A DNA stretch of 64,000 bases from Rickettsiales bacterium (GTDB lineage Bacteria > Pseudomonadota > Alphaproteobacteria > Rickettsiales > UBA998): assembly GCA_046348685.1 (NCBI GenBank), contig JAXMDT010000006.1, positions 2,395 through 66,394 of the forward strand, written 5' to 3'. The notes below the pieces were generated by a model that saw only the letters and a program-made list of their open reading frames with translations, ran no database searches and was not told the origin of the DNA. Every line of letters begins with the position of its first letter. Position 1 is the first letter of the stretch. Positions 7,621 through 59,717 of this stretch are shown piece after piece. The position numbers and the translations under genes are program-made.

Positions 7621-7672
7621 TGTCATCCCGGCCCCGTTCTTCAACGGGATAAACTCCGGCCGGGATCCACGT
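7621..7672. repeat. family C hairpin element (GTCATCCCGGC...GCCGGGATCCACG type)
   Basis: The sequence is tgtcatcccggccccgttcttcaacgggataaactccggccgggatccacg. It has the same termini as the copies at 24651, 58346 and 58764. Confidence 0.7.
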
Positions 7673-23630: not shown

Positions 23631-23717
23631 GTCATCCTGAGCGTAGCGAAGGATCTAGATTCTTCGCCTTCGGCTCAGAATGACAATAACTGGATTCCAG
23701 CTTTCGCTGGAATGACG
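23631..23717. repeat. two family C hairpins between etfB and etfA
   Basis: They are gtcatcctgagcgtagcgaaggatctagattcttcgccttcggctcagaatgaca (23631-23685) and ctggattccagctttcgctggaatgacg (23690-23717, the 'WIPAFAGMT' unit). Confidence 0.8.
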
Positions 23718-24650: not shown

Positions 24651-24678
24651 CGTGGATCCCGGCCTTCGCCGGGATGAC
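24651..24678. repeat. family C hairpin (CGTGGATCCCGGCCTTCGCCGGGATGAC)
   Basis: The unit is near-identical to the copy at 58764-58791. Confidence 0.8.
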
Positions 24679-27258: not shown

Positions 27259-27393
27259 GTCATACCGGCCTTCGCCGGTGCGATATTATCTCAGTAACGA
27301 AGTTTTGTTGTAATTCCCGCTCCTGGCCTTTATATCGTCATCCTGAGCGCTGCGAAGGATCTGGAGATTCTTCGCCTACGGCTCAGAATGACA
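27259..27393. repeat. family C hairpins in the gltX leader
   Basis: They are gtcataccggccttcgccggtgcgat (27259-27284) and gtcatcctgagcgctgcgaaggatctggagattcttcgcctacggctcagaatgaca (27337-27393). Confidence 0.75.
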
Positions 27394-28744: not shown

Positions 28745-28747
28745 ACT

Positions 28748-28840
28748 GAATTCCAGATTGCGATGCCTTCGGCATCTTGTCTGGAATGACAATTATAAAA
28801 TGTTAGTGTATGCGTCATTCCAGCGAAAGCTGGAATCCAG
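28748..28840. repeat. family C hairpins upstream of GIY-YIG gene 1
   Basis: They are gaattccagattgcgatgccttcggcatcttgtctggaatgac (28748-28790) and cgtcattccagcgaaagctggaatccag (28813-28840). Confidence 0.8.
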
Positions 28841-28849
28841 GTCTTAATC

Positions 28850-29137
28850 ATGCAGCAGTCATATGTTTATATCATGGCTAGCAAGCGAAATGGGACGCTT
28901 TATATCGGCGTTACATCCAATCTTACTCAGCGAGTCTATCAGCATAAAGAAGGTTTGGCTGATGGCTTCACCAAAAAGTATAATATCAAACTGCTGGTTT
29001 ATTATGAAATTCACGAAGAAATAGAGCAAGCTATCCTCCGGGAGACACAGATGAAGGCATGGCAGCGAAAATGGAAGCTGGAATTGATAGAAAAGTTCAA
29101 TCCGGACTGGAAAGATTTATATGAAACCATTATTTAG
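28850..29137 (+). CDS. GIY-YIG nuclease family protein (UPF0213/COG2827-like)
   Basis: YVYIMASKRNGTLYIGVTSNLTQRVYQHKEG...KLLVYYE...A..RE.Q.K.W.R.WK is present. The ORF is 95 aa. Confidence 0.9.
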   Translation: MQQSYVYIMASKRNGTLYIGVTSNLTQRVYQHKEGLADGFTKKYNIKLLVYYEIHEEIEQAILRETQMKAWQRKWKLELIEKFNPDWKDLYETII

Positions 29138-29220
29138 TCTGGATTCCAGCTTTCGCCGCCGCCACGGTGGCTGGAATGACGACCTAACTCTACTGGATTC
29201 CAGCTTTCGCTGGAATGACG
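29138..29220. repeat. family C hairpins downstream of GIY-YIG gene 1
   Basis: tctggattccagctttcgccgccgccacggtggctggaatgacg (29138-29181) and ctggattccagctttcgctggaatgacg (29192-29220) are inverted relative to 28813-28840. Confidence 0.8.
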
Positions 29221-32371: not shown

Positions 32372-32420
32372 ACTGGATTCCAGCTGTAGTTTATCCCGGC
32401 GAAGGCCGGGACGGGAACGA
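32372..32420. repeat. family C composite hairpin
   Basis: The sequence is actggattccagctgtagtttatcccggcgaaggccgggacgggaacga. Confidence 0.6.
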
Positions 32421-49517: not shown

Positions 49518-49604
49518 TGTCATTCCGGTATAGACCGTTATTCACGATTTTTTCTGGAACTAGAAATTAAGTAAGCCGTAGACCCCGGTCTGCGCCGAGG
49601 TGAT
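49518..49604. repeat. degenerate family C hairpins
   Basis: They are gtgtcattccggtatagaccg...tctggaac and ccgtagaccccggtctgcgccgaggtgat. Confidence 0.5.
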
Positions 49605-55175: not shown

Positions 55176-57497
<2,322 letters not shown>

Positions 57498-57502
57498 AAC
57501 TG

Positions 57503-57620
57503 TGCGCCTTTCATTTTTTCCGTATGCGTCGTTATCCTTCGGTCTCGCAATGCTCACGTAGCGCTGCTACGCTGCGCTCACTCACCTCGGCTGCCTCGCC
57601 TACGAAAATCTGAAAGACGC
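57503..57620. repeat. family E long imperfect palindrome after thiC
   Basis: The arms are gcgcctttcattttttccgtatgcg... and ...cgcctacgaaaatctgaaagacgc. The core is tgctcacgtagcgctgctacgctgcgctca. Confidence 0.55.
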
Positions 57621-57624
57621 TTAT

Positions 57625-58293
57625 ATGGCTAACTATATTGTTCATTCGGAAATACAGGATTTCAAAAAAGTTAGAGAAACTGATCCATTTCAATTAGAGC
57701 TGAAAAAAGATCCATTAAAACAGGCAATCACTTTATTGCAGCTTGCGGATAACGACTATCTATCAGCAAGAATATTATTATTAAACGGCCTATGGCAAAC
57801 TGGAATACCTAAAGCAAATGAAGTGATAGAAAAAGTTTTAAAGGCAATTCTTATTTTGAGAGCTGTAGAGTTAGACCAGCTTGAAAAGCTAAGCCTAAAA
57901 TCCTATTACCACGACACGCCTAAATTATTTGAGGAATTAAAAAAATATTTGAATATTAAGGAAGGGGATTTTCAAAGAGAAAATAGTATCCTTAGTAATT
58001 ACTATCTATGTTATGAGCGCAGATATGAAAATTGGCTCTCGCATGGCATTACTTGTATGGATGCGTCAGTAAATTCAACCGATAGAATATATACTTTTTT
58101 AAGGAATTTTTTTGTTTCCAAAATTCCTGATTCTTTAAGAGAAGAAGCGAAAGTATTTGGCTTTTATCTATCTCCGCTTAACTCCTATGAAAAGAATCAC
58201 CCAGAGCGAAGAAAAATAAATAATTTAAAAGAACAAAATGCGGTCTTTTCTGCCTTGGAGATCAATCAAGAAAAATTAGAAAAATTATTATAG
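57625..58293 (+). CDS. hypothetical AT-rich protein, possibly HEPN-like
   Basis: This 222-aa ORF is very AT-rich. The N-terminal helices AITLLQLADNDYLSARILLLNG...ANEVIEKVLKAIL resemble HEPN. A candidate R-x6-H lies in ERRYENWLSH. The assignment is weak. Confidence 0.35.
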   Translation: MANYIVHSEIQDFKKVRETDPFQLELKKDPLKQAITLLQLADNDYLSARILLLNGLWQTGIPKANEVIEKVLKAILILRAVELDQLEKLSLKSYYHDTPKLFEELKKYLNIKEGDFQRENSILSNYYLCYERRYENWLSHGITCMDASVNSTDRIYTFLRNFFVSKIPDSLREEAKVFGFYLSPLNSYEKNHPERRKINNLKEQNAVFSALEINQEKLEKLL

Positions 58294-58345
58294 TTCATGG
58301 ATCTAATCCTTTTCCTCCATTTCCTCATTTGGCTTGCGGTTAGAG

Positions 58346-58433
58346 GTCATCCCGGCGAAGGCCGGGATCCACGAATTACTTTTTCCTCGACGCTTATATA
58401 ATAAGACGTAGACCCGGCCTACGCCGGGGTGAC
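58346..58433. repeat. family C hairpins upstream of GIY-YIG gene 2
   Basis: They are gtcatcccggcgaaggccgggatccacg (58346-58373) and cgtagacccggcctacgccggggtgac (58407-58433). Confidence 0.8.
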
Positions 58434-58477
58434 ATTAGTAGTTGTGCTGAAGGCTTTATAACGTAATTAGATAAACT

Positions 58478-58762
58478 ATGCCTTACTGGGTTTACATCGT
58501 CACCAATAAGCCGAATGGCATTCTGTATATTGGGGTGACGAATGATATTGCACGGCGAAGTTATGAGCATCGTGAAGGGCTCATTGAAGGCTTTACGAAA
58601 AAATATGGTCTGAAAATGCTTGTTTATGCAGAAGAATATGCCACGATTGAAGAAGCGATTCATCGTGAGAAGTGCATGAAAGAATGGAAGCGTGCATGGA
58701 AAATCAGGCGTATTTTAGAGGCAAATCCTGATTGGCATGACTTATTTGAAATCTTAGTGTAA
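58478..58762 (+). CDS. GIY-YIG nuclease family protein (second copy)
   Basis: YWVYIVTNKPNGILYIGVTNDIARRSYEHREG...KMLVYAE...REK.MKEWKRAWK is present. The ORF is 94 aa and is a clear paralogue of 28850-29137. Confidence 0.9.
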   Translation: MPYWVYIVTNKPNGILYIGVTNDIARRSYEHREGLIEGFTKKYGLKMLVYAEEYATIEEAIHREKCMKEWKRAWKIRRILEANPDWHDLFEILV

Positions 58763-58763
58763 A

Positions 58764-58791
58764 CGTGGATCCCGGCCTTCGCCGGGATGAC
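58764..58791. repeat. family C hairpin immediately after GIY-YIG gene 2
   Basis: cgtggatcccggccttcgccgggatgac starts 2 nt after the stop codon. Confidence 0.8.
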
Positions 58792-58793
58792 AT

Positions 58794-59717
58794 ATGTACA
58801 ATTTCATTTTATTTTTGCATCTCCTCATCTGGCTTTCGGCGGGGATTATTTATTCCAAGGTCAGCGGGTGGCCGTTTGAGCTGTTTACGCACTGGATCGT
58901 GACGTGGATTGTAACAGCTGCGATACTTTTGGGAGTAGCGATAGGCGAGAAACAATGGGTATACAGCATTTCGGCGTTGATACTGACGGTCGCGCTGAGT
59001 GCAAAACTGCTCACAGGCTATGCGTATGATACGGCCTGGTCGGACGCGAAGCCAGAGCACCCGGTCACACTCGCGCAGTGGAATATCTATAACGGCAATG
59101 ACTATGTCTTCCGCTGGATTGAATCGCTGAAGGGCGTCGATGTCGTCGTGCTAAACGAGGTGAAGCCTTGGGTGCGCGACCGGATTGCGGACAATCTGCC
59201 GGAGTATCCTTATAAATTGCTGCCGGAAGGGCTGGCGCCGGATACGGTCATCATCAGCAAGCTGTCGCTGCTGAATACGAGCATCACGCCCATCGAAGGC
59301 TCGCCACGTTTTATCCTGAAGGCAGAGATTGAGGAGGACGGCAAGCGTTTCGTCCTGCTTGCGGCGCATACGACCTCGCCGAGCCGTCCGGCACGCTACG
59401 CACGACGGGTAGCGGAACTGAAAGCCATCACCGCCGCGGTGCAGGCGGAAACGCTGCCGGTGGCCGTTGTTGGGGATTTGAATATCACGCCGTATTCGCC
59501 GGACTTCAAAAAACTCATGCAGGAAACGCAACTCGCATTGCCAGCCGCGCCGCTGGCATTACCGGTGACCTGGCCAAGCATCCTCGCGCTACCGGGATTT
59601 GGCCTGCCGATTGACCACATGCTCTCGAAAGGGCTGGCGGTTTATAGCCGCGCCGCGCCGGATTTTCTTTGCTGCTCTGACCACCGGCCGGTAGTGACGC
59701 GCTTTAAAATTAATTAG
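58794..59717 (+). CDS. endonuclease/exonuclease/phosphatase (EEP) family protein with an N-terminal membrane anchor
   Basis: Three N-terminal TM helices are followed by LAQWNIYNGN...VVVLNEV...VVGDLNITPYS...PIDHML...SDHRPV. Confidence 0.8.
   Translation: MYNFILFLHLLIWLSAGIIYSKVSGWPFELFTHWIVTWIVTAAILLGVAIGEKQWVYSISALILTVALSAKLLTGYAYDTAWSDAKPEHPVTLAQWNIYNGNDYVFRWIESLKGVDVVVLNEVKPWVRDRIADNLPEYPYKLLPEGLAPDTVIISKLSLLNTSITPIEGSPRFILKAEIEEDGKRFVLLAAHTTSPSRPARYARRVAELKAITAAVQAETLPVAVVGDLNITPYSPDFKKLMQETQLALPAAPLALPVTWPSILALPGFGLPIDHMLSKGLAVYSRAAPDFLCCSDHRPVVTRFKIN

Follow-up and report, generated by a model that had tools for sequence, protein, structure and literature searches.

The closest described system to the locus analysed here is that of the Ssn nucleases and their hairpin targets (Chenal et al., Nat Commun 2025, PMC11893778). 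In Neisseria the hairpin, NTS, has the consensus CGTCATTCCCGCGMAVGCGGGAATCYRG, and the wider class is referred to as Ssn-related motifs (SRM). Four purified Ssn homologues bind the hairpin as single-stranded DNA only and on one strand only, cutting a few bases upstream, and members of the family leave double-stranded DNA uncut (PMC11893778). In the survey of homologues of the 94-aa SsnA (CDD cd10448), 71% had a nearby SRM and 42% had an SRM on both sides, and SsnA modulates transformation in N. meningitidis (PMC11893778). The association of gene and hairpin and the idea of a co-evolving pair are already published, and the insertion sequence (IS)-like layout of ssn cassettes is noted in the published discussion; paralogues within one genome are not mentioned (PMC11893778). 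Our literature search found no later paper on the Ssn family. No other site-specific nucleases are known to act on single-stranded DNA exclusively, and the Ssn enzymes are sought as tools.

Two other systems invite comparison. As with REP/BIME repeats and their RAYT enzymes (IS200/IS605-like, HUH), a small nuclease gene lies here between inverted copies of a genome-dispersed hairpin repeat, inverted doublets occur, and the hairpins would be recognised on single-stranded DNA. The enzyme here, however, is a GIY-YIG protein, with a fold unrelated to that of the HUH tyrosine enzyme and with neither a covalent intermediate nor strand transfer known for it, and several apparently orthogonal systems share one genome. 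Free-standing GIY-YIG homing endonucleases such as the phage T4 Seg proteins and I-TevI have the same core, with its Tyr-Tyr-Arg-His-Glu-Asn residues, but they act on one cognate site in double-stranded DNA and have a DNA-binding domain of their own beside the core, whereas the protein here is a bare core tied to a dispersed hairpin.

The window, a stretch of 64,000 nucleotides, covers positions 2395–66394 of contig C6 in a 1.97-Mb, 22-contig Rickettsiales assembly. Our reading is that the open reading frame at 58478–58762 encodes a nuclease of the Ssn kind, specific for single-stranded DNA, that the hairpins flanking it are its cognate SRMs, and that it belongs to one of four such lineages whose enzyme–hairpin pairs are largely independent; taken as a whole, we give this a probability of roughly 0.85. 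The likeness to the published system is close: here too, a 94-aa single-domain GIY-YIG protein is encoded between inverted 27–28-nt hairpins of the form GTCA-stem-loop-stem-TCYRS, with dozens of intergenic copies that lack the gene, in a small-genome, probably symbiotic alphaproteobacterium, a kind of host enriched in the published survey (PMC11893778). The differences are that four paralogues with separate hairpin families occur in this one genome, and that subtype A is distinguished by the CCCGGC stem of its hairpins, by the T that precedes GTCA and by a longer conserved tail.

Nuclease gene A and its hairpins

Cassette A contains one gene and three hairpins:

58346–58373, + strand (GTCA-first): left SRM hairpin, subtype I, GTCATCCCGGCGAAGGCCGGGATCCACG, identical at 28/28 positions to the hairpin upstream of the L041 homologue
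58407–58433, − strand: SRM hairpin, subtype II, cgtagacccggcctacgccggggtgac (GTCACCCCGGCGTAGGCCGGGTCTACG on the − strand), matching the published SRM motif
58478–58762 (stop codon included), + strand: ssn paralogue A, GIY-YIG nuclease (Pfam PF01541, E = 9e-16)
58764–58791, − strand: right SRM hairpin, subtype I, cgtggatcccggccttcgccgggatgac, inverted relative to the left one and matching the published SRM motif

Paralogue A is a single-domain protein of 94 aa, in which PF01541 spans residues 3–76 and no second Pfam domain was found. Residues Y6, Y17, R27, H31, E64 and N83 are invariant in the alignment of all four paralogues, and from what is generally known of I-TevI and UvrC we take these to be the catalytic residues. 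In an NCBIfam search the only matches of the protein were sub-threshold ones, to TIGR01453, a model of group I intron endonucleases (E = 2e-5). The sole match in a PDB sequence search was UPF0213 protein BH0048 (1ZG2, E = 0.005), so no Ssn structure was found there, and a contig search for the exact protein found no other contig that encodes it.

The three hairpins share the general form GTCA-stem-loop-stem-TCYACG. The first two make up an 88-bp doublet (58346–58433), which is also conserved in L151, a contig carrying the orthologous locus, and has homologues at C3:190842, C14:43752 and C19:12608 of this genome. The right hairpin is wedged between genes, 1 nt past the stop codon of ssn A and 2 nt ahead of the ATG of the next gene. 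Folded as single-stranded DNA, the three hairpins have energies of −7.9 to −10 kcal/mol, with z-scores of −2.5 to −4.1. The window contains 5 copies of the core CCCGGC-N4-GCCGGG, compared with 0 in 100 shuffles.

The original prediction, made from the letters of the window, had proposed a 94-aa GIY-YIG gene at 58478–58762, a related hairpin unit 44 nt before its start and an inverted copy at 58346–58373, and all three hold: the Pfam match identifies the gene, 58407–58433 lies 44 nt upstream of the ATG, and the left hairpin is as listed above. A further hairpin said to follow the stop after 2 nt is present, but the spacing is 1 nt. The prediction also listed five copies without an adjoining gene, at 7621, 24651, 27259, 32391 and 49576. 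All five exist; two are good copies, and the other three have degenerated through loss of GTCA or the tail. Together with one of another type, they are:

7622–7670, + strand: A-type SRM without ORF, 22-nt insertion in the loop, good copy
23690–23717, − strand: B-type SRM without ORF, intact
24652–24678, − strand: A-type SRM without ORF, intact, good copy
27259–27286, + strand: degenerate A-type hairpin, TACCGGC stem, tail lost
32391–32418, + strand: degenerate A-type hairpin, GTCA lost
49577–49604, − strand: degenerate subtype-II hairpin

Assignment to the Ssn family

The published SRM search motif, HGTCWYN(0-2)YYVSBRHN(0-5)WNVSBRGN(0-2)RNCYNB (PMC11893778), has 48 matches in the genome, compared with 6.6 ± 2.6 in dinucleotide shuffles. 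Two of these fall at cassette A (58408–58434 and 58765–58792, both on the − strand), and the left hairpin, 58346–58373, misses the motif by its first letter (G) alone. The hairpin of paralogue B differs from the NTS consensus by one complementary stem base pair and no more. Beyond this genome, the consensus over the gene-proximal hairpins of 24 diverse loci is NTS itself, and homologues at 55–66% identity (L011, L080, L089 and L116) are flanked by hairpins with the Neisseria NTS consensus. The homologue matches include Sphingomonas and a metagenome-assembled genome labelled Rickettsia typhi, genera that are both named in PMC11893778. Domain, size, motif matches and NTS consensus therefore place the finding under Ssn/SRM, an assignment of cassette A that appears well supported by domain content and the published motif.

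By analogy with the purified enzymes, we infer that paralogue A would cut single-stranded DNA only, in a strand-specific manner. It would bind the hairpin of the GTCA-first strand when the DNA is single-stranded, as during replication or repair or in incoming DNA, and would then nick a few bases 5′ of GTCA; this mechanism is extrapolated from the enzymes of Neisseria, N. elongata, N. wadsworthii and Wolbachia. Copies without a gene would be either targets of the nuclease or deletion derivatives of cassettes.

Four paralogues and four hairpin types in one genome

The original prediction of two GIY-YIG paralogues falls short: by tblastn, the genome has four ssn genes, A (window position 58478), B (window position 28850), C (C8:46821) and D (C11:12042, minus strand). 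All four proteins have 94–98 aa, and B–D are 44–54% identical to A. Paralogue B, the first cassette of the original prediction, also lies in the window:

28850–29137, + strand: ssn paralogue B, 95 aa, found by tblastn
28746–28790 (−), 28814–28840 (+), 29139–29180 (−) and 29193–29219 (−): TTCCAGC-type SRMs flanking B

Every paralogue is accompanied by hairpins of the general form GTCA-Y-stem-loop-stem-R-TC..., in four types that differ from one another. Type A has TCCCGGC, CCCCGGC or TACCGGC stems and a TCYACG tail; type B is TTCCAGC-GAAA with a TCCAG tail; type C has TCCCGCAY and a TCAAS tail; and type D is a two-tier, long-loop hairpin with TTCCCYGA and a TCCAGC tail. The hairpins adjoining each paralogue are all of that paralogue's single type, as had been predicted of the two cassettes first noticed; paralogue D lacks an upstream hairpin. 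The genome thus carries four Ssn nuclease lineages, in at least three protein clades, and four diverged enzyme–hairpin pairs coexisting in one small genome are a modest addition to a known family.

A genome-wide census (GTCA plus a near-perfect stem) gave 61 hairpins, 57 of which fall in the four types (25 B, 20 A, 6 C and 6 D, with 4 others). Crude ORF calls leave 56 of the 61 in intergenic DNA, and about 89% of the genome is coding. Outside the stem, the types differ in the base that precedes GTCA, which is T in A-type (16/20) and C-type (6/6) hairpins and C in most B-type ones (20/25), and A-type hairpins have an extended tail, ACG-N-CTTAYT. Each family is scattered through intergenic DNA, both as single hairpins and as inverted doublets of 54–135 bp; many copies are in such doublets, which have unrelated inner sequences and commonly end 8–10 nt ahead of a start codon. 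At C1:55982–56116 a B-type doublet encloses a nested doublet of another type (GTCATGCC... / TCCTGAA...GGATGAC), which indicates that hairpin units insert into one another.

The four nuclease–hairpin pairs may act largely independently. They differ in the stem, in the tail and in the base adjoining the cut site, and as four diverged pairs in a single genome they provide a ready 4 × 4 matrix for mapping specificity.

Hairpin type and protein phylogeny

The comparison drew on 31 related genomes, which supplied 30 loci, and on named genomes of many phyla, which supplied 80. Among 96 homologous loci examined across many phyla, 77 have a GTCA-hairpin within 120 nt of the gene. The commonest layout places a GTCA-first hairpin 5–45 nt upstream and an inverted one 0–35 nt downstream, with one stem sequence on both sides. 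After dropping proteins more than 85% identical, 62 non-redundant loci remained, over which protein distance and hairpin distance are correlated (Mantel Spearman r = 0.31, p ≤ 5e-4), most strongly for the 3′ tail (r = 0.33), then for the stem arm (0.25) and the loop (0.20).

On the maximum-likelihood protein tree, tail labels need 28 changes, compared with a mean of 39.3 and a minimum of 34 in 300 shuffles, and arm labels need 43, compared with a minimum of 47. Paralogue A groups with L153 and L041 (support 94), with TCCAC tails throughout; C groups with its counterpart in the relative G001, which likewise has a C-type hairpin; and a well-supported clade, mostly with TCCAG tails, contains both B and D. 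The three closest homologues of A elsewhere all have a TCCACG tail, on a TCCCGGC stem in two of them and a TGCCAGC stem in the third. On this evidence the four paralogues are old, separate lineages and not recent duplicates.

The check proposed with the original prediction, protein phylogeny against hairpin subtype, accordingly found the pairing to be consistent within the genome and, from the tree and the distances, across genomes, with fewer label changes for the 62 loci than in any of 300 shuffles. The co-diversification that it had suggested is supported, with a qualification: the hairpin does track protein phylogeny, but gene and hairpins are inherited as one cassette, and the correlation is therefore no proof of co-evolved specificity. 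A simple search for residues common to two independent clades with TCCAC tails and rare elsewhere found none.

History of cassette A

The best named homologue of A, L041, lies directly after thiC; it is 72% identical in amino acids and 70% in coding sequence, with an upstream hairpin identical at 28 of 28 positions. Closer still is the orthologue in L151, a metagenomic Logan contig from SRR12898368, with 92% amino acid identity and the order thiC, hairpin doublet, ssn, inverted hairpin and the endonuclease/exonuclease/phosphatase (EEP) gene that follows the cassette here too. Compared with this orthologue, A shows a dS of about 1.2 and a dN/dS of 0.04, and the hairpins are nearly unchanged; strong purifying selection has therefore acted on A while it kept a fixed position. 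The orthologues in L151 and L152 have a TAG at codon 74. A further homologue, L153, is 78% identical to A in an unrelated context and has a TGCCAGC stem and the TCCACG tail of A.

Comparison with L151 also reveals a foreign segment that abuts the left hairpin. The features around the cassette are:

57625–58293, + strand: AT-rich HEPN-domain gene, foreign insert (Pfam HEPN, E = 1.4e-4)
58297–58345, + strand: relic 5′ end of a diverged EEP allele, 16 codons, MDLILFLHFLIWLAVR, identified by a shared peptide and abutting the left hairpin
58794–59717, + strand: downstream EEP gene (Pfam PF03372, E = 2e-17; synteny with L151)

A 723-nt segment (57623–58345), comprising the HEPN gene and the relic, is absent from L151, where a 30-nt spacer stands in its place. 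Its left end follows a conserved element downstream of thiC; on the right it runs up to the GTCA of the left hairpin, and homology to L151 resumes exactly at 58346. The HEPN gene has a GC content of 32%, compared with about 51% genome-wide, and 150 other genomes of the order lack it. The downstream EEP gene, which has at most 29% identity in the genomes of relatives examined, begins MYNFILFLHLLIWLSAG, and a six-frame translation of the genome contains the peptide ILFLH[FL]LIWL no more than twice, once on each side of cassette A. The relic and the EEP copy differ at 8 of 30 nucleotides and at 1 residue (p about 2e-4 under random substitution), from which it follows that the two 5′ ends diverged as functional alleles. 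We had considered the relic as a replacement 5′ end carried by the cassette and dropped this idea, the L151 comparison placing the relic in the HEPN segment.

Two side observations concern thiC (55179–57497) and its flank. The gene contains an in-frame DUF559 insert (57012–57397) that is absent from the L151 copy, which aligns at about 90% on either side (56627–57011 and 57398–57622) and thus provides a natural empty site for the DUF559 cassette. The adjoining 125 nt downstream of thiC (57498–57622) are 89–93% identical to L151, compared with 74% for the neighbouring cassette and EEP region, and probably represent another repeat family because diverged copies (72–76%) occur at three other genome sites, C1:6909, C1:103182 and C2:104021.

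Possible mobility, and distribution among relatives

The hairpin–gene–hairpin unit could be an autonomous IS-like element, with the GIY-YIG nuclease as its sole mobility protein and the ORF-less doublets as MITEs moved in trans. We regard this as possible but rather doubtful. In its favour, cassette C (350 bp), like cassette A (446 bp), is bounded by inverted hairpins. The gap between mlaE and mlaF is 361 nt in this genome (G000) and 315 nt in G001, compared with at most 68 nt in 25 other relatives, so that cassette C is clearly an insertion, and an ancient one, into a normally tight junction, found in 2 of the 28 relatives in which that junction can be scored. In G001, which belongs to another genus, an internal deletion in cassette C (L122, G001:C202, about 300–680) has taken out the central part of the gene, with the catalytic Glu; this copy is intermediate between a complete cassette and a doublet that lacks the ORF. 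The ssn gene is present in 17 of 31 relatives, with copy numbers of 0–7, close homologues of A occur in unrelated contexts, as at L153, and the published discussion itself remarks on the IS-like layout (PMC11893778).

Against mobility of this kind, neither doublets nor cassettes showed target-site duplications, the inner sequences of the doublets are mutually unrelated, and the two outer cuts would be on opposite strands. To our knowledge, GIY-YIG enzymes have no strand-transfer chemistry, and cassette A has kept one position over a dS of 1.2 with a dN/dS of 0.04. Hairpins and gene can also part company. Strict hairpin pattern counts rise with the number of ssn copies (Spearman 0.49, p = 0.005), yet G006, G009, G015 and G024 have 146, 70, 70 and 17 strict SRM-pattern matches and UvrC as their sole GIY-YIG protein, and hairpins can therefore outlive the nuclease. 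In a separate relative, L130 (G017:C8), the mlaE–mlaF gap is about 457 nt, widened by an unrelated small ORF resembling a membrane protein, with no GIY-YIG cassette.

These data bear on whether such systems are selfish or domesticated: A is conserved in place under strong selection, C is a datable insertion decaying in a sister genus, and some relatives keep many hairpins without the nuclease. The system would lie somewhere between a selfish IS-like element and a domesticated recombination modulator.

Host function, gene capture and other readings

A domesticated host function, with a nuclease that trims or restricts single-stranded DNA wherever a hairpin marks it and in this way adjusts recombination or transformation near particular genes, as proposed for Neisseria, is conceivable, and we would hold it only tentatively. 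Such a role would fit the purifying selection on A and its stable position, the intergenic placement of 56 of 61 hairpins in a genome that is 89% coding, the joining of the foreign HEPN segment to the outer edge of a hairpin, a few bases from the published cleavage position, and the effect of SsnA on transformation in N. meningitidis (PMC11893778). It sits less easily with the patchy distribution in relatives and with the L151 orthologue, a pseudogene; four parallel systems are hard to justify by a single housekeeping task, and the recombination junction is one case.

That junction, within a few bases of where Ssn enzymes are reported to cut, is a lead and not a result. It would acquire a larger meaning if the four Ssn/SRM pairs were mutually orthogonal 'restriction-like' systems for single-stranded DNA, and if one-ended, homology-facilitated illegitimate joins started from their nicks at the edges of hairpins and captured foreign genes. 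We think this improbable; were it true, the AT-rich HEPN gene and the relic would have been welded in where Ssn would cut, and SRM hairpins would be hot spots of gene capture beyond being mere repeats.

The preferred reading, a nuclease specific for single-stranded DNA with cognate SRMs, leaves very little room for a classical free-standing homing endonuclease that cuts an empty double-stranded site and is copied in through repair. The GIY-YIG domain, the weak similarity to TIGR01453 (E = 2e-5, below the cut-off) and the intergenic spots between conserved genes would suit such an enzyme, but the 94-aa core has no further DNA-binding domain, related cassettes lie at unrelated sites, dozens of ORF-less hairpin copies are dispersed through the genome, and family members do not cut double-stranded DNA (PMC11893778). 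Least credible is that the hairpins are ordinary REP-like or terminator elements, placed near the gene by chance or regulating its mRNA only: despite GC-rich stems in intergenic DNA and one terminator-like match (minus strand, 58425–58405), the gene has such a hairpin beside it at 77 of 96 loci across phyla, the pairing is type-specific within the genome, binding and cleavage have been shown for homologues (PMC11893778), and the terminator reading of the cassette A hairpins was rejected because no T-tracts follow the stems.

Two open frames among the relatives are recorded as side observations. In L006 (G025:C8, minus strand, 1–1773), an ssn ORF without a stop codon runs through the downstream hairpin (...WFVMDPRVKPEDD...) into the gene for the glutamate synthase large subunit, giving an apparent fusion of ssn and glutamate synthase. 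A similar open frame of 1699 aa occurs at G014:C19.
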